Source: Escherichia coli (GTDB taxonomy: Bacteria; Pseudomonadota; Gammaproteobacteria; Enterobacterales; Enterobacteriaceae). Taken from it: DNA of 64,000 bases. The position numbers and the translations under genes are program-made. Each line of letters starts with the position of its first letter. The stretch's first letter is position 1. Shown here piece after piece: positions 210 to 63,527 of this stretch. A model generated the notes under the pieces. The model was given only the letters and a program-made list of their open reading frames with translations, was not told where the DNA came from and did not search any database. The DNA lies in NCBI RefSeq assembly GCF_011045215.1, contig NZ_CP049201.1; one strand, given 5' to 3'.

Positions 210-2357
210 TTATTTTTTGCTTTCTTCTTTCAATACCTTAACGGTATAGCGGCCATCAGCCTGACGGTATGCACCGTGAATATCGGTTTCAAAGCCCGGA
301 TAGTGAGCGCCGATTTCACACAGCATCTGCAGGAACTCCAGAACCGGACGGCTTTCTTCGGTGATCATTTCACCCGGCATTACCAGAGGAACTCCCGGCG
401 GATATGGAAGGATCATATTGGCGTTAATACGACCTACCATTTCGTCGAGGTAAACTTCTTCGATCATACCGTGCAGCTCTTTCTGGAACGCAGCATACGG
501 AGTCATTACCATTGTCGGCAGCACTTCAAATGCGCGATACATCAGATCCGGCAGATTGTGGTGAACAATCCGTTTGTGGATATTCTGAGCCAGTTCCTGA
601 ATACGCATGTTTTCATAGAATTCAGGATCTTCACGATACAGAGACGGCAGCATGTTTTTCACACGCAGGTTCAGGTCGAACGCACGTTTGAAGTCAGTCA
701 GAGCACGCAGCAGGCTCAGTGCTTTGGTCTTATCGATACCGATGCTGAACAGGAACAGCAGGTTATACGGACCGGTTTTCTCAACAACGATGCCATGTTC
801 GTCGAGGTATTTCGCCACGATGCTGGCCGGAATACCAAAGTCGCTCATGGTGCCGTCTTTTTCCATCCCCGGAGTCAGCAGGGTGACTTTGATCGGGTCA
901 AGATACATGTGCTCGTTATCGATGTTTTTGAAGCCGTGCCAGGTGCTGTCAGAACGCAGCGGCCAGCATTCAGTCGTATCGATATGATCCGGCTGCCAAA
1001 CATCAAAGAACCAGCCATCAGATTCCGTTCTCAGACGTTTGATCTCTTTACGGAATTTGATCGCACGTTCAATGGAACCGTTGATCAGACGCTTACCAGC
1101 ATTACCTTTCATCATCGCCGCAGCGGTTTCAGTGGACGCCACGATACCGTAGTGTGGAGAAGTGGTGGTGTGCATCATGTAGGCTTCGTTAAAGGTTTCT
1201 TCGTTTACGTCACCTTTAACGTGGATCATGGAAGCCTGAGAGAACGCCGCCAGCAGTTTGTGAGTAGACTGGGTTTCGTAAATCACTTTCCCTTCTACAC
1301 GGCCACCGCTCATACCGCATTTACCTTCGTAAATCGGTGAGAAGTTGGTGTAAGGCACCCACGCGGAGTCAAAGTGGATGGATTTCACATCCAGTGTTTT
1401 CTTGATGAAGTCGGTGTTGTACAGCAGACCATCATAGGTAGAGTTAGTAATTACAGCATGTACCGGCCAGGTTGCGTTTGGTGTTTCCTTCACGCGCTTA
1501 GCAATGGTAGCGTGCTGGAATTCACTCTGTGGGATACCACCAAGAATACCGTAAGCGTTACGGGTCGGGCGGAAATAGATTGGCGTAACATCGCTCATCA
1601 TCATCAGGTGGGTCAGCGATTTGTGGCAGTTACGGTCAATCAGAATGGTGCTGCCTGCTGGAGCAGAGTACATACCAACAATTTTGTTCGCAGTGGAAGT
1701 ACCGTTGGTCACCATGTAGCTGCGGTCTGCGTTAAAGACGCGAGCGATATACTGTTCTGCTTCTTTGTGTGGACCACTGTGATCCAGCAGAGAACCCAGT
1801 TCAGATACTGAAATGGAAATATCAGATTTCATGGTATTCGGACCAAAGAAATCATAGAACAGGCTACCTACCGGGCTTTTCTGGAATGCAGTACCGCCCA
1901 TGTGACCAGGAGTACAGAAAGTATATTTACCTTCACGAACATATTTAAACAGTGCTTTAGTCAGCGGAGGCAGAATAGTGTTGATATATTCGTCAGTGGT
2001 CTGCTTGATCTTGTTAGCAATATCTTCAGCAGCACCTAGCGCATATTCAAAGAAGCTAATCTGTAAACGCAGGTCATTCAGGCTTACATCGAGAGTGGAA
2101 TACGTATTAGCGAACGCGTACAACGGCAGGTTCTCGTTCATTTTGCTAATTTCTTCGCACAGCTCGAGATTATATTTATCCCAGTCAAAAATAACGCCGC
2201 ACAGACGCGCATTGTTTTCGATCAGTTTTAATAAGTCGTCACGGTCGTTCGGGTAAACAATCTGGAAGTTCAGACGTTCAAGCGCGCGATGAAGTTCACG
2301 GATGGGTTCTTCTTTAAAATAAACCCCCATGTGATTCAATATTGCAATAACGTTCAT
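210..2357 (-). CDS. cadA: inducible lysine decarboxylase CadA (PLP-dependent)
   Basis: 715-aa ORF whose N-terminus MNVIAILNHMGVYFKEEPIRELHRALERLNF and overall sequence I recognise as E. coli CadA. GGAG sits 8 nt upstream of the ATG at 2357; the ORF-track start at 2396 is an upstream in-frame ATG adding 13 aa. Confidence 0.93.
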   Translation of the reverse strand: MNVIAILNHMGVYFKEEPIRELHRALERLNFQIVYPNDRDDLLKLIENNARLCGVIFDWDKYNLELCEEISKMNENLPLYAFANTYSTLDVSLNDLRLQISFFEYALGAAEDIANKIKQTTDEYINTILPPLTKALFKYVREGKYTFCTPGHMGGTAFQKSPVGSLFYDFFGPNTMKSDISISVSELGSLLDHSGPHKEAEQYIARVFNADRSYMVTNGTSTANKIVGMYSAPAGSTILIDRNCHKSLTHLMMMSDVTPIYFRPTRNAYGILGGIPQSEFQHATIAKRVKETPNATWPVHAVITNSTYDGLLYNTDFIKKTLDVKSIHFDSAWVPYTNFSPIYEGKCGMSGGRVEGKVIYETQSTHKLLAAFSQASMIHVKGDVNEETFNEAYMMHTTTSPHYGIVASTETAAAMMKGNAGKRLINGSIERAIKFRKEIKRLRTESDGWFFDVWQPDHIDTTECWPLRSDSTWHGFKNIDNEHMYLDPIKVTLLTPGMEKDGTMSDFGIPASIVAKYLDEHGIVVEKTGPYNLLFLFSIGIDKTKALSLLRALTDFKRAFDLNLRVKNMLPSLYREDPEFYENMRIQELAQNIHKRIVHHNLPDLMYRAFEVLPTMVMTPYAAFQKELHGMIEEVYLDEMVGRINANMILPYPPGVPLVMPGEMITEESRPVLEFLQMLCEIGAHYPGFETDIHGAYRQADGRYTVKVLKEESKK

Positions 2358-2436
2358 AGTCATATCTCCAGGTAAAAAAGGCCCCTCCCAACACATGGGA
2401 CAAAATGAAAGGAGGAGCCTCGGAAAATACTTTTAA

Positions 2437-3771
2437 TTAATGTGCGTTAGACGCTGTTTGGTTATCCATTGAGTGGCTCTGGCGCTCGTGCATTTTGCGA
2501 GCGTAGAACATCAGGATAATCAGGCTGACGATGAAGGTACCTGCCAGCTCGAAGGAGCTTGCGCCCATCAGCGCGATGAAGCAGAACACGCAACCCAGTA
2601 CAGAGCAGATCAGGCTGACAAAGTTGCGGATGTTAACGCCTTCAAAACGAATCAGGTCAACGCAAGAGTAGAAGTACGGCAGCATAGTCAGCAGTACTGC
2701 GATACCGGTCAGTTCACCGAACAGGTCAGATGCTTTACCACCGGCAGAGTTCATCAGAGTGATGAGGATCATCAGGGCAGTCATTTTCACTGCAGCCAGC
2801 AGCAGACCTTTTTTCGGAATACCGTTGCTGTCGACTTCACCATAAACTTTCGGGAAGTTACCGTCGTTAGCGGCACGTACACCTGCCTGGCCTACCAACA
2901 TCATCCAGGAGCCCAGAGAAGTCAGGCACGCAAAGGCGGTGAATGCAGAAACCAGCGGCGCAGCCCAGTTACCGAGGATAGTTGAAGCACTGATTGCAAA
3001 CGGAGCACCGGAAGCCGCCATTACAGAAGACGGATACATACCGGAAAGCACCTGAGTCGCAGCGATGTAAACAATACCTGCTAAACCAGTACCCAGCATG
3101 GTTGCCAGCGGAACGGTACGTTTCGGGTTTTTAACCATACCAGTACTTACAGCTGCGGATTCAACACCCACGAAGGCCCACAGGCAGAGCAGAATACTTT
3201 TAATGATCGCATGACCATCAGTGGTATCCGCAGTATTCCAGTTAGCTGCATAAGTTGCCGCATCAAACCAATGCCAGCCAACAATAGCAGTCATCACCAC
3301 AGGAATAAGAACCAGCACCAGACCAATAGTGGTTAAACGGCTTACCCAGGTACCGCCGAGCATATTTACAAAGGTAAATACCCAGACGATAGCAATACAG
3401 GCGATACCCGCCGGAACAGGATCATTTAATACTGGGAAGAAGGTGGAAAGATAAGATACAGCGGTAATACCAATCGCCAGGTTACCAATCCAGTTAGCAT
3501 GGTAATAAAGAACACCTGTCTGAAAACCAAATGCAGGGGAAATTTCTCCGGCATAAGCAATTGGGCCACCTTGTTGCGGGTTTTTTGTTGCCAGTCGGGC
3601 ATATACATACGCCAGCGACATTGCACCAATAATAGAGATAATCCAACCCCAGATAGCAATACCACCGATACTTGCTAGGTTCGCAGGTAATAATGCAATA
3701 CCGCTCCCCATCATATTACCGGCAACAACACCGGTACAGGCAAATAGCCCGATCTTCTTGGCAGAACTCAT
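2437..3771 (-). CDS. cadB: lysine/cadaverine antiporter CadB
   Basis: 444-aa polytopic membrane protein (MSSAKKIGLFACTGVVAGNMMGSGIALLPANLA...), APC-family permease, directly upstream of cadA in the canonical cadBA arrangement. AGGAG RBS before the ATG. Confidence 0.93.
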   Translation of the reverse strand: MSSAKKIGLFACTGVVAGNMMGSGIALLPANLASIGGIAIWGWIISIIGAMSLAYVYARLATKNPQQGGPIAYAGEISPAFGFQTGVLYYHANWIGNLAIGITAVSYLSTFFPVLNDPVPAGIACIAIVWVFTFVNMLGGTWVSRLTTIGLVLVLIPVVMTAIVGWHWFDAATYAANWNTADTTDGHAIIKSILLCLWAFVGVESAAVSTGMVKNPKRTVPLATMLGTGLAGIVYIAATQVLSGMYPSSVMAASGAPFAISASTILGNWAAPLVSAFTAFACLTSLGSWMMLVGQAGVRAANDGNFPKVYGEVDSNGIPKKGLLLAAVKMTALMILITLMNSAGGKASDLFGELTGIAVLLTMLPYFYSCVDLIRFEGVNIRNFVSLICSVLGCVFCFIALMGASSFELAGTFIVSLIILMFYARKMHERQSHSMDNQTASNAH

Positions 3772-4136
3772 GCTCTTCTCCTAATTTCATTTTTGAATTT
3801 GGAGTCCGGGTCATGATGTATAACTATTTCCTGACCAGACCAAACTGGCGATAAGATTACTCACGAAAAAAGGATTAATCCTAAAGATTAGGTGAAATAA
3901 CACAAAAGTTTCTGTAAGTGAGAACTTGAGGTTTTTTATTAACACATCAGGATCGCAAGTTGATATCATGAAAAGATAAACATTCAATGTTTACAATGGA
4001 TTGCGTGACATTGTCTGGTTAAATTTATGTAATAAAAATTATGCGGCAAATAAATTGCCGCAACATATTATACCAACAGGAACATACAAAAACTCAACAA
4101 CAAATATTCCCTGGCATGAATCAACCCGGGAGTTAC
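3772..4136 (-). promoter_or_regulatory. cadBA promoter/operator region (expected CadC-binding sites)
   Basis: 365-bp AT-rich intergenic region between cadC and cadB. From established knowledge this interval carries Pcad and the CadC target sites; individual sites were not mapped here. Confidence 0.45.
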
Positions 4137-5675
4137 TTATTCTGAAGCGAGAAATTTGTCGAGATAAGGTACAACATAAGGAACAGAAGTCTGGAATATA
4201 CCATTTTCAATCCAGTAAAGGGTGTTTGCCCCTGGGCGTAAATTAAAGGCGGTGAGATATGCATCAGCTGCTTCCCGATTCATCCCCTTCATTTCATAAA
4301 CCTTGCCAAGCAATACATAATTTAGCCAGGACATTTCAAGATCAATGCCAGTATTTATCGCCTGGTAAGACTCATCTGTTTTACCTTTTACCAGAGCACT
4401 GACCGCTTTTATTTGATATATAATGGACAGGTTATTCAATTCCGGTAGTGTAACAATGTTATCTATTTCTGTGTTCAGTGCTGCTAATTGTTTTTCATCT
4501 AAAGGATGTTGAGAATGGCGCACGATATCAACTAATGCTTTTTCTGCTCTCGCGTAGGTAAATTCTGGAGATGATTGAACAATCTCACCTAATAATTCAC
4601 TGGCACGGTTCAATGATTTATCATCGCCATGCAGTAAATAATCATGTGCCTGATAAAAATTAGTTAATAACGCACCACGATGAGGCAAAATTTGCTGGAG
4701 CGTCTCCTGCATTCGTTGTGGCCACGGTTGGTTTAACGCTTTTGATAAACTCTCCAGTAAATCATTTTGAATCGCCAGCTGATTACCGTTAGTGATGACA
4801 TAACGTTTATCCAGCATGGTTGAACCATCTGCATTGTCTACCAATTTTATCGACATAAAGCATTGTTGAGCACGGTATTGGCGCTGATTAACAAACGCAA
4901 TAGATAATGTTTTACCGGAACTGCTCGGTTCATCAATGTTGTAGTTGATTTTGTCATGCACCATAAAGGTGGAGAAGGTGTTAAGTGATGTCGCCACCAA
5001 ATCACCCACGCCTATCGCGTAAGAGAGCTGATACGGGGAACTCCAGCTGTTACAACTTTTATTTACCATATTAATGTCAATATCGCGTGGATTGAGCAAA
5101 ATACGCGATTTGCTCATCGGAAGACGTGTATCAAGACTTGAAAACGCTACCAGTGCTACACAGATACCTAAGGACAACAGGAAAAAAAACCATACCCAAA
5201 AGGTAGTGAATCGTTTGCTTTTAACTGGGGATTGTTCAGGTGGCGTTGCGGTGTTTTGAATGTTAAGGCTGTGGGAGGGAGAATCTGTGGCAGGAACCGC
5301 CTCTGGTATAGGGGGAGGCGAAGATAGCATTATTTCCTCTCCCTCTTCTTCGCTGTACCAGATAACCGGCACCATTAATTTATAGCCGCGCTTTGGTACA
5401 GTAGCGATATAGACAGGACTATCTTCATCATTATCTTTTAATGACTTACGTAGTTCTGAGATACTCTGCGTCACAACGTGATTGGTGACAATACTTCTCT
5501 TCCAGACATTATCGATAAGTTCATCCCTGCTAAGTACTTCGCCACTGTGTTGAGCAAAGAAAACCAGAAGATCGATTAATCTCGGCTCAAGGGTAAGTTG
5601 ACGCCCATTGCGGCTAATTTGGTTTATGGACGGAGTAACAAGCCATTCGCCAACGCGAACTACAGGTTGTTGCAT
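4137..5675 (-). CDS. cadC: ToxR-like membrane-integrated transcriptional activator CadC
   Basis: 512-aa ORF with an N-terminal winged-helix DNA-binding region (MQQPVVRVGEWLVTPSINQISRNGRQLTLEPRLIDLL), a central TM segment (FWVWFFFLLSLGICVALVAF) and a periplasmic sensor domain; matches E. coli CadC. Confidence 0.93.
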   Translation of the reverse strand: MQQPVVRVGEWLVTPSINQISRNGRQLTLEPRLIDLLVFFAQHSGEVLSRDELIDNVWKRSIVTNHVVTQSISELRKSLKDNDEDSPVYIATVPKRGYKLMVPVIWYSEEEGEEIMLSSPPPIPEAVPATDSPSHSLNIQNTATPPEQSPVKSKRFTTFWVWFFFLLSLGICVALVAFSSLDTRLPMSKSRILLNPRDIDINMVNKSCNSWSSPYQLSYAIGVGDLVATSLNTFSTFMVHDKINYNIDEPSSSGKTLSIAFVNQRQYRAQQCFMSIKLVDNADGSTMLDKRYVITNGNQLAIQNDLLESLSKALNQPWPQRMQETLQQILPHRGALLTNFYQAHDYLLHGDDKSLNRASELLGEIVQSSPEFTYARAEKALVDIVRHSQHPLDEKQLAALNTEIDNIVTLPELNNLSIIYQIKAVSALVKGKTDESYQAINTGIDLEMSWLNYVLLGKVYEMKGMNREAADAYLTAFNLRPGANTLYWIENGIFQTSVPYVVPYLDKFLASE

Positions 5676-22220: not shown

Positions 22221-22248
22221 GGCGCTGTATTTGCAGCGCCGTTTTTTA
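22221..22248 (+). terminator. rho-independent terminator downstream of topB
   Basis: GGCGCTGtatttgCAGCGCC followed by TTTTTTA. Confidence 0.65.
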
Positions 22249-22312
22249 TTCCGGGTTGACTTTCCATGGATGTGTTTTAAAAATAACCGGGCTTATTTGC
22301 TGCATCTGCAGC

Positions 22313-22496: not shown

Positions 22497-22614
22497 TTAC
22501 TTCTCAGACAGCCGGAATTCAGCTGATCCGGCATCCCCGACGGGAACATTCACTTCCGTCAGGGATGGTGATGTTCTCCGTCATCACATTTTTTAACTCC
22601 ATGGAGAAATCATC

Positions 22615-23070
22615 ATGTCTGTAAATACTGCTAAAACTGAATACTTTAATCTGACCCTGAAAGGTCTGGGGTATCTCAGTAATGTACGTCAGGTGAATCA
22701 CCAGAACGGCTCGTTTCTCAGCTGTGTGGTGAATGCGCTGAGCGGACCCACGGACAGCCCGTCCTACGTCCGTTTTGATGTCACGGTTGCCGGTAAAGAG
22801 GCGACTGCCCTGATTGCCCGCTGCCAGAAGGCGGTGGATGAAGATCGCAAGGTGCTGCTTGGCTTCACGCTGAGCAACCTGTCCACTGACATCTTCACTC
22901 TGAACAAGGGAGAGCATGCCGGTGAACAACGCGTCAGCCTGAAGGCCCGCCTGATCAAGGTGGACTGGATCAAGATAGGCCAGGAGATGGTTTACAAGGC
23001 TGAAAAATCAGACTCCCAGCCGCCGCAAAACGGCACCATGCAACAGCAATACGCAGAAAACTCTTTCTGA
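22615..23070 (+). CDS. conserved ICE protein upstream of ssb (151 aa; DUF3577-like)
   Basis: GGAG RBS; position between topB and ssb is typical for this ICE family. Family name is from memory. Confidence 0.55.
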   Translation: MSVNTAKTEYFNLTLKGLGYLSNVRQVNHQNGSFLSCVVNALSGPTDSPSYVRFDVTVAGKEATALIARCQKAVDEDRKVLLGFTLSNLSTDIFTLNKGEHAGEQRVSLKARLIKVDWIKIGQEMVYKAEKSDSQPPQNGTMQQQYAENSF

Positions 23071-52772: not shown

Positions 52773-52914
52773 ATAATTAATTTGTATCTACAGAATATTA
52801 ATGCTCAGGCTGGTTAACCCCGGCCTTTTTATTTTATATACAGACGTTCCTGTGAGACTATTGACATATAAAAGCCCGTCTTGCTAATCTTTTCCCGCTT
52901 TAATGTCGCTGTAT

Positions 52915-53101
52915 GCGACCATCCAAATCCCCAGTAGTCTGAGAGGGGAGCCTTCGGGCGGCTACCAGCCAATGCTTTAACGATCTGAGAGAAGCGCCTT
53001 CGGGTGATCGTAATGTTCTCGTAGCCTGGAAGAGAACGCCTTACGTGGCGGTACATCCGTTTAACCTCTGGGAACGGATATCACGGAACCGTGATTGAGG
53101 T
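52915..53101 (+). ncRNA. structured repeat element R2 (homolog of R1 and R3)
   Basis: Same unit architecture as R1 with compensatory stem substitutions (TCCCC/GGGGA in place of GTTTC/GAAAC; ACGATC/GATCGT in place of GCAGTC/GACTGC) and the conserved 3' domain GGTACATCCGTTTAACCTCTGGGAACGGATATCACGGAACCGTGATTGAGGTC. Confidence 0.45.
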
Positions 53102-53763
53102 CGTGCTGGCCTGAGGCCAGTTGTTCTATGCAGGCATCCTGCAGATGCCATGATTCTTTACTTACAGGCTTATCACGCCTGCATATCAATACGTTAAGTC
53201 TTTCAGAGACATGTCTGAACGAACTGACGTCTTTAATCTGTTCGGGCATTCGCCCCGGGCTTCTTACGACTGTACGCACTGCATAAGGCCATCTGAAATC
53301 TGGCCGCTTGCGTGCGTATGTGGAGTTTGAAGCTGCGCGGCGTCACTTTTGTCGGCGTGTAACGATGACAAAGTGACGCATGCGCGTCTGCTTTACGAAC
53401 CCGCACAAACCGTCGCGTCACGGGATGTTTTTTAACATTTGAAGAAGTGACCAGACGTGAGAGTGTTTTTTCAACCTTCTCTGCAAACGTACAGACGATA
53501 CCGTGAATAACGTTCATCGACCGTTCTTCTTGCAGAATTTTATTGTTTTTTAAGGAGTTTTATGTAGTGAGATGCCGAACCGGCGATACCACTTATTAGG
53601 GGTGGTATCGGGGGCGACCTGGAAACAGGTACAGCGAATGCTGCAGTCGGTGTGCAACACCGGTTTGTTACCCCTCAATACCTAAACAGTCTGCGCTACC
53701 CTGGCGCTCAGGCACTCATTACCCGAAGGATCGCAACGCTTAACCGTGTCGCCAGGGAGAATG

Positions 53764-53850: not shown

Positions 53851-54753
53851 GTGTCCAGACGTGAAAAATTACTGAAACAGGATTTGGTTGCTCATATCCG
53901 GAAAGACCGGGGGAGTTTCAAGAAGCTGAGTGACTATTCCCGGATCATGCACCGGTTTGCGGAAAGACTGGCTAAACTGAATATACAGATCAGTTCTGCT
54001 GCGCAGGTAAAAGTGCGGCATATTGAATTATATATGAACAGCAGGAGTGATGTTTCAAAGCGAACCAGAGAAAATGAAATGTCTGCAATACGGGTTATGT
54101 TACGTCAGGCCGGTAAACATAAAATGGCAGATCCTGAACATCCCCGTCTCAGCAATAAGGCGTTAGGTATTTCAGGAGGAAGCCGTAAAGGGACAAAGAA
54201 ATTAATTACGGATGAGCGTTTCCGGGAAATTCTTCAGCGCGTGGAAGCAAAAGATAAAGGGGTGGCAGCTGTTGTTAAACTGTCACGTTATCTCGGTCTG
54301 AGAAATGAAGAAGCTGTCCAGTCGGCCAAATCGTTACGGACGTGGAAAAAAGCGTTACAACGGGGAGATGAAAAAATAAGGGTGATTTTTGGTACGAAAG
54401 GGGGACGGGAAAGAATGACGACGGTTGTTGACCGGGATAAAGTTCTTGATGCTGTTAATTACGCACTCAAATATGCCAGTGAGCATAATGAACGTCTGAT
54501 AGACAGAGATAATCTTAAGTCGGCAATGGATTATTATCTTAATACGTTACGACGTTATGGAGAACTGAAAGGCGGAGATGAAACCGCACACAGTTTTCGG
54601 TACAGTTACGCCGCAAGTGCCATGAAATATCATATTATGAATGGTTACAGTTATAAGGAGGCACTTGCACTGACATCAATTGATCTTGGTCATGGTGATG
54701 GCAGAGGTCGATATATTGAACAGGTTTATTGTCAGTTATTAGGCTATGAGTAA
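53851..54753 (+). CDS. tyrosine site-specific recombinase (phage-integrase/Xer-like catalytic domain)
   Basis: GTG start with GAGGAGG RBS. Catalytic-domain boxes: LSRYLGLRNEEAVQ (box I Arg), HSFRYSYAASAM (H-x-x-R), GHGDGRGRYIEQVY (catalytic Tyr). Confidence 0.65.
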   Translation: MSRREKLLKQDLVAHIRKDRGSFKKLSDYSRIMHRFAERLAKLNIQISSAAQVKVRHIELYMNSRSDVSKRTRENEMSAIRVMLRQAGKHKMADPEHPRLSNKALGISGGSRKGTKKLITDERFREILQRVEAKDKGVAAVVKLSRYLGLRNEEAVQSAKSLRTWKKALQRGDEKIRVIFGTKGGRERMTTVVDRDKVLDAVNYALKYASEHNERLIDRDNLKSAMDYYLNTLRRYGELKGGDETAHSFRYSYAASAMKYHIMNGYSYKEALALTSIDLGHGDGRGRYIEQVYCQLLGYE

Positions 54754-54785
54754 TAATTTATATCGATTTTGTGTGGGTAAATATC

Positions 54786-55109
54786 ATGGATTGTACTATT
54801 TTAATGAAAATAATCTCTGTAAAGGAGATTACAAAAGATTCGCCTTTGTGGTCACACTACCTGGTGCGATATATTGATTCCGGATATCAGGCTGAGTTTG
54901 AATGTGAAGGAACAGCAGATAAATGGGGCATCTATGATGAATGGGACATCTGTGAGTCGATTGCGGATTATTTTGACGTGGTGGGAGATTTTGACTGTGA
55001 TGTCAGACGGACGGGAAGAATAATACTGATGAAAGGTACCTGTGTTTTTCCTCCAGGAGAACCGGTTAAGGGAACACATAATATTCCTTTTTGGATCGAT
55101 GTTGAATAG
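54786..55109 (+). CDS. small strongly acidic protein (107 aa); candidate DNA-mimic or anti-restriction-like protein
   Basis: Very high Asp/Glu content (for example DEWDICESIADYFDVVGDFDCD); AT-rich codon usage. Confidence 0.4.
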   Translation: MDCTILMKIISVKEITKDSPLWSHYLVRYIDSGYQAEFECEGTADKWGIYDEWDICESIADYFDVVGDFDCDVRRTGRIILMKGTCVFPPGEPVKGTHNIPFWIDVE

Positions 55110-55157
55110 CTTGACATCCATCTTTTGTGCCTTAAAAATATACAGGCTAACTTTGTT

Positions 55158-55414
55158 ACCTTCGGGTGACCATCCAATGTTTCGGTAGTCTGAGAGAAAC
55201 GCCTTCGGGTGACTACAGTTATCTTCGGATAACCATCCAAATCCCCGGTAGTCTGAGAGGGGAGCCTTCGGGCGACTACCAGCCAATGCTTTGACGATCT
55301 GAGAAAAGCGCCTTCGGGTGATCGTAATGTCTCCGTAGCCTGAAAGGGGACGCCTTAGAGGGTGGTACATCCGTTTAACCTCTGGAAACGGATATCACGG
55401 AACAGTGATCGAGG
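55158..55414 (+). ncRNA. structured repeat element R3 (three units plus terminal domain)
   Basis: Largest copy: a partial unit, then GTAGTC/GACTAC, GGTAGTC/GACTACC and ACGATC/GATCGT units, and the conserved 3' domain ending ..GATCGAGGTC followed by TTTTAT. Confidence 0.45.
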
Positions 55415-55488
55415 TCTTTTATACTTAACCCGTGCGGGAGATACATTCCCGTATGGTGATTGTATCTCCGGTTTTACTGTGGAGGTAC

Positions 55489-55839
55489 ATGATGCCGTTA
55501 TCTTCTTTTGTTCAGGAGTTGCTGGCTCCCTGGTATTCTTTTCGTTCTGTCTGTTGGCGCATTTTTGTGGCTTTTCCGCAACTGCGGGCAACTGTATTGC
55601 GTACCCGCTGGTATCTGTCGTTGACAGGACAACGAGAATATTGCCCCAATGTCTGGTTTGATGGCAGTGTGTACCATTGTGCTGTGTTGGTGCGGGAGTG
55701 TCATGATGCCCGTAAATCAGTACCAAAGGTGCAGTACTATATCCCTGGATACTTTTCTTCATATCGTTCAGCATACCGGACAGCCAGGAGAACGGCGATT
55801 GCGCTGGCGACGATAAAAGTGTCGTGCAGGGCTGTCTGA
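55489..55839 (+). CDS. hypothetical basic protein (116 aa)
   Basis: GGAGG RBS; first gene downstream of R3. Confidence 0.4.
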   Translation: MMPLSSFVQELLAPWYSFRSVCWRIFVAFPQLRATVLRTRWYLSLTGQREYCPNVWFDGSVYHCAVLVRECHDARKSVPKVQYYIPGYFSSYRSAYRTARRTAIALATIKVSCRAV

Positions 55840-55948
55840 TTCATTATTACCGAACCGGAGCATCAGCGTTGTTGTGATGCCTCCATCCCCTGACGGGTGT
55901 TTTTGTCCGTCGGGGCGAAGACTCCCGTTTCTTTTTACAGGAGTCTTT

Positions 55949-56323
55949 ATGTCAACGTTTATTTTGTGCCCTGAACCGGGCATCTCTTCTTTTTTCCGGC
56001 GAATGACGGCTCAGTTGCGGGTGTTTTTTTCACGCAATAACCTGTCATATTACAGTCGCTGGTACACCAATCCGGCCGGCAATCTGAGTGTGCGGGTCTG
56101 TATGTTTCGTCGTGGCGGTGTCTGGACACCCTGTCTGTATTACCGGCAGGGAATGCACCGCAACGCGTACACAGGCTGGTATCAGCCGTTACCGCGTGAG
56201 GTCATTTGTCTGAACCGGTTTACCGGGCGGATATCCCGTCGCAGGACCTGGCATGCTGCCTGCCGTATGGCGGAACAACTGACCACCCTGCGTTACCGGT
56301 TTGGTCTGCAGGCTGATGGATGA
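55949..56323 (+). CDS. hypothetical protein (124 aa), Arg/Tyr-rich
   Basis: AGGAG RBS. Confidence 0.4.
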   Translation: MSTFILCPEPGISSFFRRMTAQLRVFFSRNNLSYYSRWYTNPAGNLSVRVCMFRRGGVWTPCLYYRQGMHRNAYTGWYQPLPREVICLNRFTGRISRRRTWHAACRMAEQLTTLRYRFGLQADG

Positions 56324-56427
56324 AAGCGTCGTACAGCCCTGCTGATTTATCATTTATTACCCTGTCGGGAACACGCTTCCCGCAGGGGAGATGTGTTCCC
56401 GTGATTTTTTGTCTCTGAGGTGAACAC

Positions 56428-56907
56428 ATGAATAGTCTGTTAATACTCCTTTACGTTGTTGTATGGCGTGTCTGCACCATTCTTCGGGTAATCACACCAG
56501 TGTCGGCTGTCCGTGCGTGGTGTGAGTATCAACTGGAAGGTATGACGATACTTCGTGATGCGTACAGCTCGCTGGCAAAGGCGGCTGGAATGCAGAATGA
56601 AGCATTTGAATATCTTAAAGGTATTGCACGTCATCTGGGCTACGAAAGCGGTGGTGACCAGCTGAAATCAGGACTTTTCCGGCCGTTTCTGTGGCATATA
56701 CGTGCGAAAGGCCACAGGCTGGGGGCTGTCATGGAGATGGAGGTATGGAAGACATGGAAGAACGGCTGTAACGATGTCTGCAATCCATGGAAGGATATCT
56801 ACAATCCATGGGAGCGTGGATGGAACGATGGCTGGACTGAATGTCTGAATCAACGTGTAGCCGGCATCCTGAAGCAGGCCTGTGTTGACTTTTCCGACGC
56901 AGACTGA
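56428..56907 (+). CDS. hypothetical protein (159 aa) with N-terminal hydrophobic segment and Trp-rich C-terminus
   Basis: GAGGTG RBS; repeated NPW motifs (CNPWKDIYNPWERGWNDGW). Confidence 0.4.
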   Translation: MNSLLILLYVVVWRVCTILRVITPVSAVRAWCEYQLEGMTILRDAYSSLAKAAGMQNEAFEYLKGIARHLGYESGGDQLKSGLFRPFLWHIRAKGHRLGAVMEMEVWKTWKNGCNDVCNPWKDIYNPWERGWNDGWTECLNQRVAGILKQACVDFSDAD

Positions 56908-57012
56908 AGGGTTTTTCTTTTACTTACTGCACCGTGTGTCTGCGCCGGTGCTTTCCCTGGCGGGAGTTTTGTTCCGTCAGGGACAGGACTTCCTGAACAG
57001 ACGGAGGTCATT

Positions 57013-57390
57013 ATGTATTCACCCTTACTTGTTCATTATTCAGCACTGCAGACGCAGTCTGCTCTGCTGGCGCATATCAGCCAGCTGGAAGGTGAGCTGA
57101 TGCGGTTACGCGCCTGGCAACGGCTGGGGATTACTCCGGAGCCGGATGATGAGACGGAGCCTTCACTGGTATACGTGCAACTGTGGGATACCGGTGAGGC
57201 GCTGGGCTGGCTGCTGTATGACCTGGAGCAGGAGAACATTCCTGCTCCGGGAGTTCAGGCCCGTCAGGCGCTTGACAGTCTGATGGCGCTGGGGCGTGAA
57301 ATTAATCATGAAATCTGGACTGACAGTATCAGTACCGGAAAGCTGACGGCCGGGGCGGATGCCTGTTTTGCCCGCCACGACATGATGTAG
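57013..57390 (+). CDS. hypothetical acidic protein (125 aa)
   Basis: GGAGG RBS. Confidence 0.4.
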   Translation: MYSPLLVHYSALQTQSALLAHISQLEGELMRLRAWQRLGITPEPDDETEPSLVYVQLWDTGEALGWLLYDLEQENIPAPGVQARQALDSLMALGREINHEIWTDSISTGKLTAGADACFARHDMM

Positions 57391-57477
57391 TTAATAACCT
57401 GACCCTGACGGGGCGTGCTCTCCGTCAGGAAGGCATTCCCCGTAGTTTATTTTTAATCTGACCATGAGGAATGTTCC

Positions 57478-58107
57478 ATGTCTGAATTATCTTCACGTCC
57501 GGCCCGTGAGCCGGTGGTATATACCCTTGAGCAGGTTGCCACAATACCGGAAAAGCAGTGGCATGCTTTTGTTCTGGCCGTAACTGAAACCTTCTGGCAG
57601 TTGCCGGAGGCGTTACGGCCGCAGAATGCGTATTTCGGCTCCCTGACCCGGGCATCTGAGTTGTTTCCGGTAACGGATACACTGGCGTTTTACAGCCGGT
57701 CTGCAGACGGGTTGTGGTCGGTGAATGTCACCATTGAACGGGAACATCGTCAGAACATTCTGGTGCTTAAGGAGCTGAATTTCGGACGCCAGCCGGGGGA
57801 TTTCTTTGCCCGTACGGTGTTTGTGCTGTTGCACAATCTGTGTCCGGATTGTTTCCACATTCATTCCACTGCCGGTGGTGCCAGCTGGTCACTGCCGCTG
57901 AAATGGATAAAACGGTTCCTGGGGCATGAGAATTTTTCTGCTCCGGAGTCTGTATTAACCACCCCGGTAAGGGGAGATGCGTTTGACTGTTTACTGCTGC
58001 AGTTTCTGTCCGGTCAGGGGCGACAGTTATCCCCGGATGACTGGTCAGCGCTGGAAGAGGCTGAACATCAGCTTTACTGGCTGCGGGCACTTGCCGGTGG
58101 ACACTGA
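57478..58107 (+). CDS. hypothetical protein (209 aa)
   Basis: AGGAA-type RBS; CPDC pair; no recognised domain. Confidence 0.4.
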   Translation: MSELSSRPAREPVVYTLEQVATIPEKQWHAFVLAVTETFWQLPEALRPQNAYFGSLTRASELFPVTDTLAFYSRSADGLWSVNVTIEREHRQNILVLKELNFGRQPGDFFARTVFVLLHNLCPDCFHIHSTAGGASWSLPLKWIKRFLGHENFSAPESVLTTPVRGDAFDCLLLQFLSGQGRQLSPDDWSALEEAEHQLYWLRALAGGH

Positions 58108-58229
58108 CAGAACACCGTTGTTTCTTTTCATTTACCCGGAATAACGCCATCGCGTATTCCGTCATTCATATAACCCGGCAGGGAGATATCCCTGTGGGGA
58201 GAGTCCCTGCGTTATTCAGGAGAATTGTT

Positions 58230-58613
58230 ATGGGACTCGATATTTACTTTATGGCTCGTGATAACCATCAGAATGGTGCCGTTGTGGAAACACAGGAACA
58301 TCAGGAAGTGGGGGCTTTCCGTAAGGTGATGCCGCTTCTGACATGGTTCCGTAACCATACTGGTGCTTCGGATGAGCAGCATACTTTCCCTGTAACACGC
58401 CGGTCACTGGCTGCATTATTGCGTGACCTCAGTATGCTGATGCCGGGAAACTGCCACAGCCTGTTTCCTTATGTCAGAAACTCGCGTTTACGGGGTGAAG
58501 ACTATGCTGATGATTACTGGTATGACGTGAATGACGTAAAAGCGTGGGTCAGCGATACGCTGAAGACGTTTGATTTTGAGCGTCGTTCACTGGTGATGCT
58601 GGCGTTGTGGTAA
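58230..58613 (+). CDS. hypothetical protein (127 aa)
   Basis: GGAGA RBS before the internal ATG. Confidence 0.4.
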   Translation: MGLDIYFMARDNHQNGAVVETQEHQEVGAFRKVMPLLTWFRNHTGASDEQHTFPVTRRSLAALLRDLSMLMPGNCHSLFPYVRNSRLRGEDYADDYWYDVNDVKAWVSDTLKTFDFERRSLVMLALW

Positions 58614-58742
58614 GTCTGAGACCGCATAATATGAACCGCTGGCGGAGGGGGTAACCTGACCGCCATTCATCCCGTGAGGGCATTGTTCCTCACGGGACAG
58701 TGCCCTCTTTTTACATCTGATACAAAAAGAGGAGCGTAAACC

Positions 58743-59690
58743 ATGTCTGAATGGTGCCAGAATCGTTTTGAAATTACCGGTAAGTCAGTCTGTCTGGATG
58801 TGCTGACGCAGTGGATTGAAGGATGTGAGATACCGCGTTACCGCCATGCCATACAGCAGAGTATACAGCTGTTTCTGGCCGGTTGTGCAGGGCTGGTGAA
58901 ACCCACCCGGACGACGCAGTATCCGCCATATCCGGCGCTGGTTCGTCACGGTACTGGGATGTCATCTCCGGCTAACCAGGCATTTGAACAGTGGCTGGGG
59001 CTGCTGGTAAAAGATGCCGTACTGGATGAAGAGACGATAAAGACCATTGACCGCCTTTATCACCAGACATGTATTGGCGCAGTCCGCTGGGGGAATCTGC
59101 CGGATAATGCCCGGGAGATAATCACCGCGTTAATGCGTTGTCAGTATTCTGACTGGTTTGGCCTGGTCGGACTGAGCGAACACATTGATGCCGGAGCCTG
59201 CTGGAGCCGGCTGTCGGATTACCCGGAGCAGGCGCAGCCCTGTGACATGCTGATGGTCATACCCTCCCGTCTGGCCACAGAGCTGAATGGTTCAGGTGGA
59301 CTGCTGCAGGGTATTTCCACCACGACCAGCCTTTACAGCCGGATATACGGTGTGGAGTGGCCATCAGGTCACAATGTCCGCTGGGTGCGTGATGAGATGA
59401 GCAGTCTGGTGCTTCTGACGGATACGCCCTGGTATCCGCCTTCAGGTGAGCTGGTTGGTGAAATCTCGAAGGTGTTCGACTGTGAGATACGGCACTGGTA
59501 CAGCGAACCTGTCCGGGGCATACAGGGTTACAACTGTTATGACGGTGGTGAACATACGGACAGTGACCCGCAGGCTGAATGGCCGGGGAGGGAAACACTT
59601 CCTCAGCCCCGGCTGTATCTGGTGGAGGAGCGCGCTGAAGAACAGACAGAAGCCGCACCTTTACCGGTTCCGCTGGCTTCAGGCCAGTAA
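58743..59690 (+). CDS. hypothetical protein (315 aa), Cys-rich N-terminal half, acidic C-terminus
   Basis: GAGGAG RBS. Confidence 0.45.
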   Translation: MSEWCQNRFEITGKSVCLDVLTQWIEGCEIPRYRHAIQQSIQLFLAGCAGLVKPTRTTQYPPYPALVRHGTGMSSPANQAFEQWLGLLVKDAVLDEETIKTIDRLYHQTCIGAVRWGNLPDNAREIITALMRCQYSDWFGLVGLSEHIDAGACWSRLSDYPEQAQPCDMLMVIPSRLATELNGSGGLLQGISTTTSLYSRIYGVEWPSGHNVRWVRDEMSSLVLLTDTPWYPPSGELVGEISKVFDCEIRHWYSEPVRGIQGYNCYDGGEHTDSDPQAEWPGRETLPQPRLYLVEERAEEQTEAAPLPVPLASGQ

Positions 59691-59811
59691 TTAACCTCAG
59701 GGTGTCACATTCGTGGCACCCGTTTTTTCCTGTCATCTTTCATTTCAGCCCGAAGGGGAACACCTGTTCCTCCCCGGGGCCATGTGTTCCCTGTTTTTTA
59801 CGGAGAAACAC

Positions 59812-60504
59812 ATGGCCACCTTTATCGACCATCAGAAGGCCTTCATTTCGCTGTTTAATCAGACCGCCCGTTATCACAAACGCCATAAGGTGTTTGAAGA
59901 CTTTGTCAGCTGCAGTGTGATTGCCCTGGAGAACCGGCTTCAGTTCAGTGAGGCACGGGAGCAGAAGTACCTGCGAATCGTCAGTGGTTATGAAAAGCAG
60001 GATGTTATCAACATGGCGCATTTGCTTGCTCATGTCATTGAGGGACTGGAGCAGGGATTCTGTGACTTTCTGGGCAGCGTGTTCATGCAACTGGAGCTGG
60101 GGGATAAATACCGGGGCCAGTTTTTCACGCCCTGGAGTGTGGCCAGAATGATGGCACAGATGCAGCTGGGGAATGTGACGACGCTGTTTGAGAACAAGCC
60201 CTTTATCACGCTCCGTGAACCGGCCTGTGGTGCCGGCAGTATGATACTGGCTATGGCTGACACCCTGAACCATTCGGGATATCCGGCATATCGCAGGATG
60301 TGGGTGTCGGCAACGGATATTGACCCGCTGGCAGCCGGCATGGCGTATATACAACTGTCGCTGTGTGGTGTGGCCGGTGAAGTGGTGATTGGCAACTCAT
60401 TGTGTAATGAGCGACGCCGGGTACTGCTGACGCCCGGGCATTACCTCGGGAACTGGTCATATCGTCTGCGTCATTCTCAGGAACAGGTCACAGCTGATGC
60501 CTGA
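59812..60504 (+). CDS. short methyltransferase-like protein: HsdM-type SAM-binding motif without the NPPF/Y catalytic motif
   Basis: REPACGAGSMILA (motif I-like) and ..ATDIDPLAAGMAYIQLSLCGVAGEVVIGNSL, but the ORF ends about 30 aa later and is followed by a clean terminator. Confidence 0.45.
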   Translation: MATFIDHQKAFISLFNQTARYHKRHKVFEDFVSCSVIALENRLQFSEAREQKYLRIVSGYEKQDVINMAHLLAHVIEGLEQGFCDFLGSVFMQLELGDKYRGQFFTPWSVARMMAQMQLGNVTTLFENKPFITLREPACGAGSMILAMADTLNHSGYPAYRRMWVSATDIDPLAAGMAYIQLSLCGVAGEVVIGNSLCNERRRVLLTPGHYLGNWSYRLRHSQEQVTADA

Positions 60505-60517
60505 TTTTTTATCACTA

Positions 60518-60549
60518 CGCCAGTCTTCGGGCTGGCGTTATTATATTTG
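60518..60549 (+). terminator. rho-independent terminator
   Basis: CGCCAGtcttcgggCTGGCG followed by TTATTATATTTG. Confidence 0.6.
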
Positions 60550-60863: not shown

Positions 60864-63089
60864 ATGTCTAAGCCGGAAAACGGCCAACAGCTGCCCGCCA
60901 TCTGTTGGCCGGTGCCTAAAAATAACCGGGGCGGGGAGTTCAGTAATCTCGAGGAGATGTTGGCGCATCTGGAGGGCGAGGCCACCGGGCACTGGCTGAT
61001 TGGCCGTAATGGTATGTGGCACGGGGGAATTCATATCACGGATATCACGACTCCGTGGTGTGCGCTCAGCGGTCAGTCGATGAATGAGGCGGTGGATTTT
61101 CCTGTGCCGTTTAAGGGAGAGCAGCCCGTGCGCTGCATGGCGGATGGTGAGGTGGTGGCGTACCGGATAAACCGGGATTCTCTCAGCGTGCCGTGGTACT
61201 GGGGGGATTTACACTACTCCGGGTCTTTTGTACTCATTCGCCATCGTATTCAGCCAGGGGAAACGGCAGAGAGCGGGCTGACCTTTTACACCCTGTATAT
61301 GCACCTCGCGCCCTGGCTGGCTTACCCGGAGCAGGACAGTACGGCGTTTAAGGTCGCAGACAGACAGTATCTGAATGCGTATGCGGACGCGTCCCGGCAG
61401 TGGGTGGTGGCAGAGTTGCCACCCGGTACACGTGTGATATGGGACAAAGCGGTAAGTGCAGACACCATGACAGGGAGCAACGGTCGGCAGTATGCGCGCG
61501 TTACGCTGGCGGAGCCGGTGACGGGCAGGATGAACCTGAACGCCGGAGACCGGGTATGGACAGTATGCGATAAAGGGAATCTGGTTCCGGTTCGTGACAG
61601 TATCATCCGTCCGGCGTGGTGGTCGCCGTTCCTGCCGCCGTCACGCGAAACGGTACAGTTTGATACGGTGGTGTGTCCGACACCTTACCCGATTAAAGCC
61701 GGTGCCCCGGTGGGGCATCTGGGCTATTTTCAGGTACCCACGGATAACGGGCATGAAAAACGCTATCAGGTGCATATCGAATGCCTGACAACGGACGACC
61801 TGCCGCGCTTCCTGAGCAACCCGGAAGGTGTGGGGCGTGACACTCCCGCCTTTGCCCGTTGTCCGAAGGATATACCGGTGTATCTGAAATATACGGACGG
61901 AGAAATACACAAGAGCCTGGTAACCACGGAGAGCGAAACGGTGATGGCGCTGTCAGGTCAGGTGGTGACGGACAAAGAGGGTAAACGCTACTGGTCGGGG
62001 GGAGGGGTATCACGCGGACTGCTGGCGGAGTCAGATGTGCAGTTGTTATCCAGGTATGACCTGGCTGACCGGGGTTTTGAGGCCACGGAGGATAACCCGG
62101 TGAGCTTTGACCATCTCGACGGAAAGAGACAGCCGAAGGGGCTGGTGAGGACGATTTTTGAGCGTTTTTTCAACGTGGCGGATAATGACGGTAAGCTCTA
62201 CAGCAAAATAGTGGCATTCAACTACCGGCAGCTGCTGGACCAGATTGATGACGCCAAATCCCCCCGGTATAACCCGGAACTGTACCGGCGCGCGGTACAG
62301 AACCCGTCAATGCGTGAGCATCTGTATCGTTTGTGCGTGAAACATCCCAGCGAGTGGTATTACTCGTCGGAGTCTTCGGTATGGAAAGCATTTTTTACGC
62401 CCCAACTGAAAAGAGACGCCACGGAGTGGTACGCCTACAGTATGAAATTTTTGACGGATCTCCGCTGGATGTACCGTGTGGCCGGAATGGTGGAAAATCC
62501 GTGGCATATGCACCCACTGGTATTTCTTGATGCTATTAATGATATAGGTATGACTCTCGATGAAGCCAGAGTTCGGGCATTTATGAGAATGATTCGAGTT
62601 GGCGAAGGGACTGTTGGTGAGGTTGGGTATGAAACATTGTTTGGTAAGCAGTCATTCATAAAAGATTATCATAAAGATTTTAGTGATCACCCGAACATAA
62701 TAATTACTAGAGGTACATTAAAGTCTTCTGCGGCTGGAGCATATCAAGTAATGGGTTATACATGGAATGATCCTAACATGTTGTTTTATCGCAAAAAATA
62801 TGGGATCGTGGATTTTTCTCCGAAATCACAAGATGAGTTTTGTGTGCTAATCCTTAAATATAAAAGGAAAGGGGCTTTAAAACTTATCATTGATGGTGAC
62901 ATTGATGGGGCTTTAGATATTTTGAGTTACGAATGGGCAAGTCTTCCCCCTGCCAGATACCCTCAACCAACCAAGAGTAAGAGTGAGGTTATGTCCTTAT
63001 ACAATAAGTATTTATTAGAAGAGCTCTTAGGGGAGACAGATCTTCACCTGCCAATCGGCTACATAAAACAAGTTTATAATGGTGTGTAA
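60864..63089 (+). CDS. two-part protein (741 aa): GC-rich N-terminal region fused to an AT-rich C-terminal lambda-lysozyme-R-like lytic transglycosylase domain; candidate peptidoglycan-targeting toxin or bacteriocin
   Basis: The C-terminal ~170 aa align with recalled phage lambda R: GEGT (catalytic Glu), FSDHP, KSSAAGAYQ, DFSPKSQD, KGALKLIIDGDIDGALD, WASLP. Base composition changes sharply near 62550. The N-terminus has HxH-type motifs (WHGGIHIT; YMHL) of uncertain meaning. Confidence 0.6.
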   Translation: MSKPENGQQLPAICWPVPKNNRGGEFSNLEEMLAHLEGEATGHWLIGRNGMWHGGIHITDITTPWCALSGQSMNEAVDFPVPFKGEQPVRCMADGEVVAYRINRDSLSVPWYWGDLHYSGSFVLIRHRIQPGETAESGLTFYTLYMHLAPWLAYPEQDSTAFKVADRQYLNAYADASRQWVVAELPPGTRVIWDKAVSADTMTGSNGRQYARVTLAEPVTGRMNLNAGDRVWTVCDKGNLVPVRDSIIRPAWWSPFLPPSRETVQFDTVVCPTPYPIKAGAPVGHLGYFQVPTDNGHEKRYQVHIECLTTDDLPRFLSNPEGVGRDTPAFARCPKDIPVYLKYTDGEIHKSLVTTESETVMALSGQVVTDKEGKRYWSGGGVSRGLLAESDVQLLSRYDLADRGFEATEDNPVSFDHLDGKRQPKGLVRTIFERFFNVADNDGKLYSKIVAFNYRQLLDQIDDAKSPRYNPELYRRAVQNPSMREHLYRLCVKHPSEWYYSSESSVWKAFFTPQLKRDATEWYAYSMKFLTDLRWMYRVAGMVENPWHMHPLVFLDAINDIGMTLDEARVRAFMRMIRVGEGTVGEVGYETLFGKQSFIKDYHKDFSDHPNIIITRGTLKSSAAGAYQVMGYTWNDPNMLFYRKKYGIVDFSPKSQDEFCVLILKYKRKGALKLIIDGDIDGALDILSYEWASLPPARYPQPTKSKSEVMSLYNKYLLEELLGETDLHLPIGYIKQVYNGV

Positions 63090-63527
63090 ATGAAAAATAT
63101 ATTCCTTATATTGATATTTGTATCATCATTTACTTATGCTGGTTCTGATTTTGGAACTTGGGGAACATCATGTGATGATAATGGGTTCATTCTTTCATTA
63201 AAAGAAGATTCATCTCCATTTGTTGTTAGTGATAATCAGATAGTTGTATCCATACATTCAAGAAGGATTAACCATAAAGTTATTGATGTTTTTTTTGATG
63301 ATACATTAGATCTTGGGATAGGAGGCATGGGGTTTAACTGGGGGGATGTTGATAAAACCAAAAAAATAGCCGAGTTAACATATTCTGAAAATAATAAATG
63401 GCTGATGAAATGGTTTGGTTTTTGGGATGCAAAAAAAAAGACACGTTTTTGGGTGAAAGAGCCTGATTTTATCCAAACATACGCAAAAAATAACGTCATA
63501 ACATTGATTAAATGCGAAGAACAGTGA
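63090..63527 (+). CDS. AT-rich secreted small protein (145 aa); candidate cognate immunity protein
   Basis: ATG overlaps the upstream stop (TAAATG); signal peptide MKNIFLILIFVSSFTYAG; same low-GC composition as the lysozyme-like domain. Confidence 0.5.
   Translation: MKNIFLILIFVSSFTYAGSDFGTWGTSCDDNGFILSLKEDSSPFVVSDNQIVVSIHSRRINHKVIDVFFDDTLDLGIGGMGFNWGDVDKTKKIAELTYSENNKWLMKWFGFWDAKKKTRFWVKEPDFIQTYAKNNVITLIKCEEQ

Follow-up and report, generated by a model that had tools for sequence, protein, structure and literature searches.

A conserved STAXI-headed gene array with a repeated cassette leader in an SPI-7-family integrative and conjugative element of Escherichia coli

SPI-7-type and PAPI-type integrative and conjugative elements (ICEs) spread virulence and resistance genes among Enterobacterales, and to our knowledge it is poorly understood how they survive restriction and other host defences on entry. 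Here, we describe a block of seven consecutive genes (g1 to g7, positions 55489-59690) on such an element in a 64-kb stretch of E. coli contig NZ_CP049201.1, hereafter called the window, which we compared with around 25 related loci from Enterobacterales. The block is a conserved module that is already annotated and uncharacterized.

The closest described systems are the leading-region anti-defence islands of conjugative plasmids, which are co-oriented arrays of small genes with an own spacer for each gene and mix anti-restriction genes, a methyltransferase-type gene, and many genes of unknown function (Samuel et al. 2024, PMC11541004). The array of our ICE has the same layout, with anti-restriction genes found only in its relatives, and shares with these islands the DUF1281 family, which is listed there as uncharacterized family 27 enriched in plasmid leading regions (Supplementary Table 1 of the same study). 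This family is found in at least 5000 plasmids of the IncF/IncI type, where DUF1281 opens a co-oriented block of DUF1281, methylase, ArdA, SSB, ParB-like, and PsiB genes. The DUF1281 proteins of the two settings are 35%-37% identical, whereas the methyltransferase-like gene of the array belongs to a different family without the NPPY motif. Unlike the published islands, the array resides on an ICE of the MPF_G, MOBH type and is headed by a promoter-driven STAXI motif, with no Frpo/ssi-type element. A second point of comparison is YAPI of Yersinia pseudotuberculosis, which belongs to the same ICE family as the SPI-7-type elements (with dnaB-PI, STY4528, and STY4534) and encodes the DUF1281 protein Api92, a protein of solved structure (PDB 2IJR) and no assigned function. 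Third, the RNA motif STAXI owes its name to the ssb, topoisomerase, antirestriction, and integrase genes with which it is associated (Weinberg et al. 2010, PMC2864571), and the published associations of STAXI and EFASI (Rfam RF01728 and RF02957) are seen again in the window at 22298, 52904 and 53564, and 55154. Neither this account nor the quoted Rfam summary mentions a function, a promoter at fixed distance, or repeated cassette leaders.

By association, we regard the block as an anti-defence-type island of a conjugative element, that is, as a further case of a type already described. The best-supported reading is that the array serves in anti-restriction or establishment, to which we assign a probability of roughly 0.55 on account of its association with ArdA, ArdB, ArdC, and the DUF1281 family: The array products would act in the recipient soon after transfer, blunting restriction or other defences, and would thereby help the incoming ICE to establish. 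This argument is one of association because the Ard genes sit in the arrays of relatives and none of them lies in the window. The newer element of the locus is the repeated cassette leader described below together with its link to STAXI.

The whole module is composed of STAXI, EFASI, an Integrase_1-family gene, a further STAXI, the cassette array, a DUF1281 gene (g7 in the window), and a methyltransferase-like gene (Table 1). This architecture is shared by SPI-7-type ICEs and related MPF_G plasmids of Enterobacterales, with examples from E. coli, Citrobacter, Duffyella, Pantoea, Mixta, Erwinia, Edwardsiella, Chimaeribacter, Rosenbergiella, and Pluralibacter. The order of STAXI, EFASI, Integrase_1, STAXI, and array recurs in every related locus examined, with the Integrase_1 gene upstream of the array in all of them and EFASI at the same position in loci L006, L008, L009, and L010. 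The original prediction had placed the seven genes in a variable region flanked by the transfer genes and the unseen integrase end, but they form a conserved module that is kept with the ICE backbone across genera rather than variable cargo. Among complete E. coli genomes, the block or a variant of it is present in 128 of 5426.

Between Integrase_1/STAXI and DUF1281, the arrays of relatives carry genes for ArdA, ArdB/KlcA (Pfam Antirestrict), ArdC, LPD29, and DUF3085. The known anti-restriction genes among these were confirmed by Pfam, and ArdC is the most frequent of them. A scan of species-representative genomes with the hairpin of the DUF1281 leader yielded 13 Enterobacterales loci from Edwardsiella, Erwinia, Pluralibacter, Pantoea, Mixta, Leclercia, Chimaeribacter, and Rosenbergiella. 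The canonical order in the loci of other genera is Integrase_1, g1, (g2), one or often two copies of g5, DUF3085 or an unknown gene, ArdC, DUF1281, and the methyltransferase-like gene. ArdC immediately precedes DUF1281 in all 12 loci of sufficient sequence length, and the methyltransferase-like gene follows DUF1281 in 12 of 13. Around half of the E. coli variants listed contain ArdC, antirestriction, or LPD29 genes. The position of such an insertion is sharply defined directly after the stop codon of g6, where a 1059-bp ArdC cassette is found in L006 and a 497-bp Antirestrict (ArdB/KlcA-type) cassette in L007. In the element of E. coli TUM9803, the genes run g2-like, g6-like, ArdA, g4-like, LPD29, and DUF1281, and in a Citrobacter element g2, g4, g5, DUF3085, ArdC, and DUF1281. 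Cassettes are gained, lost, and reordered between elements, and each of them is an independent unit that brings its own ribosome-binding site and leader RNA.

As originally described, the block consists of seven co-oriented genes on the plus strand, and the PGAP annotation of E. coli RM11911 (98% identity) calls the identical seven. Each gene has its own ribosome-binding site (GGAG-type, 5-10 nt before the start codon in 7/7 genes), the intergenic spacers measure 87-129 nt, and a GC content of 0.49-0.57 resembles that of the ICE backbone (0.50-0.62). Its neighbors also proved to be as stated, since the structured element upstream, named R3 in that description, is a STAXI motif (55154-55279) and the gene downstream (59812-60504) is N6_Mtase-like. 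All seven genes have homologues at protein level in diverged loci, and ratios of non-synonymous to synonymous substitution rates (dN/dS) in comparison to orthologues show purifying selection in six of them, the exception being g3.

The three STAXI copies of the window, one of which lies at 22298 between topB and STY4534/ssb, are all preceded by a sigma-70-like promoter whose -10 element ends 13-14 nt upstream (22225-22290, 52835-52895, and 55111-55139). More generally, in 11 of 14 copies, among them copies from Citrobacter, Duffyella, and Pantoea, a promoter that agrees with the consensus at 9-11 of 12 positions is found 12-14 nt before STAXI. The copy in front of the array is made up of three pseudoknot repeat units (55155-55216, 55218-55279, and 55264-55325). 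Because of this fixed-distance promoter and since others have reported the detection of STAXI as RNA, the motif is most simply viewed as the 5' end of the array transcript. The array is therefore probably transcribed from a sigma-70-type promoter 12-14 nt before STAXI, and STAXI probably heads the mRNA. This fixed arrangement gives a testable role to STAXI, which has been an orphan RNA motif since 2010.

Every cassette of the array begins with a leader of shared build, in which a hairpin (P1) is followed by a segment B, a run of T, a Shine-Dalgarno (SD) region C, and the start codon. P1 has the form CCC-N4-GGG(A), loop, (T)CCC-N4-GGG and is often preceded by AACC. Segment B is complementary both to C, which would mask the SD sequence, and to A, an SD-like copy within the 5' arm and loop of P1, and the A:B helix together with the T-run resembles an intrinsic terminator. 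A covariance model built from 26 leaders (R1) finds exactly nine copies in the window, located in front of STY4534, g1 to g7, and the methyltransferase-like gene, all of which lie downstream of a STAXI copy, and none elsewhere below an E value of 0.5. Over all of the around 25 loci, R1 detects 112 instances that lie on the sense strand every time, and it has no match in six unrelated control loci that hold the P1 sequence by chance. No cassette leader matches a known riboswitch or leader family, or anything else in Rfam, at E <=1.

The loci of F and I plasmids contain no R1 leader at E <=0.01, with the best hit at E 0.022 on the antisense strand. Their DUF1281 genes have a different leader (L005 4355-4465 and L003 8891-9001) in the form of a stem-loop of around 90 nt, identical in both plasmids, in which TTCCTCCTCC pairs with the SD sequence (GAGAGGAGAA).

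Several lines of evidence indicate that the cassette leaders are structured RNA. Structure is far stronger in the array leaders than in the remaining leaders of this ICE (median z of -3.6 vs. -0.9; p = 3e-5), and segment B is better matched to its own leader than to others, both for B:A (complementarity of 7.8 within vs. 4.5 between leaders) and for B:C (6.4 vs. 4.4; permutation p < 2e-4 each). Compensatory changes are found in B:C among the leaders of g5 orthologues and in A:B among DUF1281 leaders. P1 beats all 500 shuffles in the percentage of paired positions, in the cells with changes on both sides, and in the covariation score; the two measures based on numbers of pairs or of pair types are not above the shuffles, and the register in the middle of the helix is imperfect. 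The leader helices also contain many G.U pairs on the sense strand that would be mismatches on the template strand, and RNA is therefore indicated. What distinguishes the array leaders is their overall structure and the specific three-way complementarity. The idea that occlusion of the ribosome-binding site is special to the array was not supported by a generic test, which did not clearly separate the array from controls (SD pairing probability of 0.72 vs. 0.62 in control ICE leaders; p = 0.04).

Judging from this structure, each leader may switch between a read-through conformation with masked SD sequence (P1 plus B:C) and a terminator conformation with free SD sequence (A:B plus the U-run), which would place all cassettes under coordinated control. 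Base-pairing of STAXI with the leaders as the trigger was tried and rejected, given that duplex energies were no better than those of shuffled controls (mean z of -1.1). The mutually exclusive helices, three of them here, and an A:B helix followed by a U-run in the manner of an intrinsic terminator are shared with classical terminator/antiterminator and anti-SD leaders. In contrast to classical attenuators, the leaders described here contain no leader peptide, are repeated before every cassette, and have a read-through conformer that masks the SD sequence. The array is also reminiscent of integrons with their co-oriented single-gene cassettes, a gene of tyrosine-recombinase type nearby, and an imperfect hairpin per cassette. 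However, an integron is ruled out because each hairpin is located 5' of its gene and contains the SD sequence and because the recombinase belongs to Integrase_1 and not to IntI. The cassette junctions are at stop codons, with neither a GTTRRRY core nor any shared junction sequence. The repeated cassette leader provides a handle on how such arrays switch on.

The original prediction had recognized no motif in any of the seven products and had proposed remote homology and structure prediction as a check, which gave a clear answer for one of them. The g7 product matches Pfam DUF1281 (PF06924; E 1e-74, 250.4 bits vs. a cut-off of 27.3) and the ferredoxin-like DUF1281_C (PF18406; E 1.5e-14, 54.1 bits vs. 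a cut-off of 22.8), and residues 3-281 align to Yersinia Api92 (PDB 2IJR) with around 60% identity (E 3e-117), making it a DUF1281/YubB-family protein. For g1 to g6, the statement stands in that none has a Pfam match, and structural models of g5 and g6 led to no informative fold match.

These six proteins form narrow families, since an exhaustive HMMER search with their concatenate against 1.84 billion representatives matched only 97, and a word-indexed protein search with g4, g5, and g6 found close relatives only. Homologues of g1 (around 11 representative clusters) that are 36%-39% identical are encoded at the same position after Integrase_1/STAXI in Duffyella and Pantoea plasmids; zinc-binding motifs in g1 were ruled out because the cysteines are not conserved. 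For g2, homologues of 31%-49% identity are found in L002, L008, and L009. Inside this gene, a minus-strand match to RAGATH-25 (55967-56019; 23.6 bits vs. a gathering cut-off of 49, E 0.026) is probably due to chance.

The evidence for coding is weakest for g3, with 18 non-synonymous and 5 synonymous changes, an open reading frame (ORF) that has stayed open across these 23 substitutions, and two homologues of 60%-63% identity (P0059 and P0075). In the element of E. coli MS1494 (L007 6435-6887), a deletion has joined the first 33 codons of g3 to the 126 C-terminal codons of g5, forming a chimeric ORF. A 64% identical homologue of g4 directly follows ardA in E. coli TUM9803. A single E. coli genome can hold sequences similar to g4 (57046-57343; around 74% identity) at as many as 10 places (TUM9803, FDN-4), and g4 therefore belongs to a multi-copy family that is spread over several mobile elements.

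Homologues of g6 are encoded in small-gene arrays of SSU5-like phage-plasmids, and by fold there is kinship with jumbo phages. The predicted model of g5 has no neighbor among solved PDB structures, and the fold searches with g5 and g6 returned no functional analogue. Fusions of g5- and g6-like sequences are known from two representatives, P0080 (L035 8001-9029), which sits in the same kind of array, and P0083 (hhalign E 3.6e-5 for the g6 part). On this basis the two proteins are inferred to act together, and g5 and g6, which are neighbors in the window, may work as a pair.

The earlier proposal that the seven genes are candidates for establishment or anti-defence functions is partly supported, by association through the Ard genes in the arrays of relatives, but no product encoded here matches a known anti-defence protein. 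Several observations weigh against an anti-restriction or establishment role. The array of the window lacks ArdC and any other anti-restriction gene recognized by Pfam, NCBIfam, PHROGs, or PADLOC. No match to Pfam, NCBIfam, or PADLOC was obtained for g1 to g6 at E <=0.1, and g4 and g6 match PHROGs of unassigned function. Signatures of ArdA, ArdB/KlcA, and ArdC (PF07275, PF03230, and PF08401 with PF18818) are missing from g1 to g6, and the same scan detects them in relatives. ArdA, ArdB, ArdC, and LPD29 cluster with the array in relatives, and of the anti-defence, methyltransferase, and SSB genes expected of such a cluster the array has in the window only the methyltransferase-like gene without NPPY as a neighbor. 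The protein family encoded by this gene has invariant QFFTPW and EPAxGAG motifs, the latter being the S-adenosylmethionine (SAM)-binding motif I, but has an invariant GN[SA]L at the site of the catalytic motif IV (NPP[YF]). The N6_Mtase match covers only positions 23-119 of the 311 of the profile, and the protein ends around 35 amino acids past the motif IV site with no target-recognition domain. The protein may bind SAM, but that it acts as a DNA methyltransferase on its own is unlikely. No homology was found between this gene and the leading-region methylase of IncF/IncI plasmids. A single-strand promoter of the Frpo/ssi type upstream of the array is ruled out by the conventional -35/-10 promoter before STAXI and by the sense-strand G.U pairs. 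STAXI also precedes replication-type genes (STY4534, ssb) and is therefore associated with DNA-processing functions more generally. The literature searched on SPI-7, PAPI-1, and ICEclc elements gave no usable oriT coordinates, nick-site orientation, or transfer direction. Finally, g1 and g5 are core members of the array that are conserved beside Integrase_1, which a housekeeping function would fit equally well.

A more far-reaching version of the anti-defence reading is tentative and, in our estimate, possible though short of probable. It holds that the STAXI-led array is a distinct, undescribed expression platform in which a three-way RNA switch at each cassette would be flipped by a common signal, either a basic protein of the g1/g2 type or a host factor. 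In this case, g1 to g6 would be new anti-defence proteins, with g5 and g6 as a two-part inhibitor of novel fold, and the whole array would fire together on entry into a new host. Be that as it may, the module is a compact hunting ground, comprising the families of g1, g2, g4, g5, and g6 as well as the widespread DUF1281/YubB family.

Among the alternatives, ICE housekeeping is a serious rival, since g1 and g5 are core genes by the recombinase and since STAXI and the same leader are also found before STY4534; on balance, we consider it unlikely. The small proteins would then have no anti-defence role and work with the Integrase_1 recombinase or in DNA processing, replication, or regulation of the ICE, and the very basic g1 and g2 products (pI 9.9 and 11.0) could be nucleic-acid-binding accessory factors or regulators. 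This would agree with the invariable position of g1 after Integrase_1/STAXI, the presence of g5 as a core gene in every genus examined, and the strong purifying selection on g1, g2, and g5 that is typical of backbone genes, as well as with STAXI and leader preceding STY4534, an "ICE replication protein" gene beside ssb and topB. However, close relatives shuffle, delete, and replace cassettes without losing the rest of the ICE, and the element of E. coli MS1494 has lost g1, g2, and g4 and retains only the remnant of a g3'-'g5 fusion. Furthermore, the cassettes share their slots with ArdA, ArdB, and ArdC, and g4 and g6 occur in phages or phage-plasmids that lack this integrase. If the genes were housekeeping genes after all, the block would be an ordinary conserved ICE segment.

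It is even less probable that the array is a decaying remnant of a module whose payload is ArdC and DUF1281, with ArdC lost here and several ORFs, above all g3, drifting without function. The presence of ArdC in the arrays of all 12 other-genus loci and of many E. coli variants and its absence here at a precise slot would be in line with such decay, as would dN/dS values of around 1 for g3 and up to 0.86 for g6 and the deletions and fusions seen in relatives such as L007. Yet many E. coli genomes of different host origin retain an intact seven-gene version without ArdC (97%-98% identity), dN/dS is 0.06-0.43 for six of the seven genes in more diverged comparisons, and all leaders and ribosome-binding sites are intact.

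The least probable reading is that the genes are plain cargo, with host-adaptive or toxin-antitoxin/addiction roles for instance, in the stretch from the transfer genes to the integrase end. It would suit small unannotated genes on an island with cargo downstream (e.g., the lysozyme-domain gene at 60864-63089), but it can hardly be reconciled with a block that is kept with the ICE backbone across genera next to varying flanking cargo (fimbriae, sialic-acid, lac, and McrBC-like genes), yields no match to PADLOC or toxin-antitoxin families, and has the GC content of the backbone.

Table 1. Coordinates of the cassette leaders, genes, and regulatory features of the module and its surroundings in the window.
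Feature	Position	Strand	Evidence and remarks
Leader of STY4534	22532-22617	+	covariance model R1
STAXI copy 2, start of conserved module	52904..53057	+	Rfam RF01728, 109.7 bits; promoter ends 13 nt upstream
EFASI motif upstream of integrase-like gene	53564..53721	+	Rfam RF02957, 55 bits vs. gathering 51.2
Integrase_1-family tyrosine-recombinase-like gene, 5' side of array	53851..54753	+	Integrase_1 E 9.5e-54; Phage_int_SAM_2 E 9e-23
Sigma-70-like promoter TTGACA-17-AAAAAT	55111..55139	+	consensus scan 10/12; -10 ends 14 nt before STAXI copy 3
STAXI copy 3 (R3)	55154..55325	+	Rfam match 55154-55279, 85.8 bits vs. gathering 40.5
Leader of g1	55426-55488 (start codon to 55491)	+	R1 38.4 bits, E 4e-8
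g1, 116 aa, basic (pI 9.9)	55489-55839	+	dN/dS 0.12
Leader of g2	55885-55948 (start codon to 55951)	+	R1 44.7 bits
g2, 124 aa, very basic (pI 11.0)	55949-56323	+	dN/dS 0.07-0.13
Leader of g3	56357-56427 (start codon to 56430)	+	R1 38.5 bits
g3, 159 aa, weakest coding evidence of the seven	56428-56907	+	dN/dS ~1.0
Leader of g4	56952-57012 (start codon to 57015)	+	R1 37.6 bits
g4, 125 aa, acidic (pI 4.5)	57013-57390	+	phrog_22073 E 2e-7; dN/dS 0.28
Leader of g5	57400-57477 (start codon to 57480)	+	R1 42.5 bits
g5, 209 aa, most widely conserved array member without recognized family	57478-58107	+	dN/dS 0.14
Leader of g6	58170-58229 (start codon to 58232)	+	R1 35.5 bits
g6, 127 aa, small alpha/beta protein	58230-58613	+	dN/dS 0.28-0.86
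Insertion slot after g6 stop codon	58614..58624	+	alignment breakpoints 58613/58618 and 58624
Leader of g7	58667-58742 (start codon to 58745)	+	R1 46.6 bits
Terminator-like A:B hairpin in g7 leader	58676-58707	+	terminator scan: 14-bp stem then TTTTT
g7, 315 aa, DUF1281/YubB/Api92-family protein	58743-59690	+	dN/dS 0.06-0.11
Leader of methyltransferase-like gene	59745-59811 (start codon to 59814)	+	R1 33.7 bits
Short N6-methyltransferase-like protein, closes module	59812..60504	+	Pfam N6_Mtase E 1.7e-6
Terminator-like hairpin, TTCG loop, probable unit end	60517..60538	+	terminator scan
741-aa protein, C-terminal lysozyme/endolysin-like domain	60864-63089		PHROG 90, E 1.5e-25

Beyond the module, the window starts with cadA-cadB-cadC of an E. 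coli-type chromosome (210-5675), and the island from around 6.4 kb on is an SPI-7-family ICE of the MPF_G, MOBH type, as seen from its markers ParA, dnaB-PI, ParB, STY4528, TopB, STY4534, SSB, PilL, TraD, TIGR037xx transfer genes, and TraG. The ICE adjoins cadC, with a partial integrase pseudogene at the cadC junction in RM11911, and no tRNA genes were found anywhere in the 64-kb window. The array runs in the same direction as traI and almost every other ICE gene.

Immediately downstream of the Integrase_1 gene, an ORF of 112 codons (54771-55109) has counterparts of 86%-93% identity in E. coli relatives, where it is annotated as hypothetical. At the other end, a 145-aa ORF whose N-terminus resembles a signal peptide comes after the gene for the 741-aa lysozyme-domain protein, both in DNA of lower GC content (60864-63527); this segment is cargo-like, and relatives carry other cargo at the same position. 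A 2.6-kb contig of an "Actinomycetes bacterium" metagenome-assembled genome (L022) encodes g5, g6, and g7 at 95%-98% amino acid identity together with ArdC, and is probably an enterobacterial contamination of that genome.

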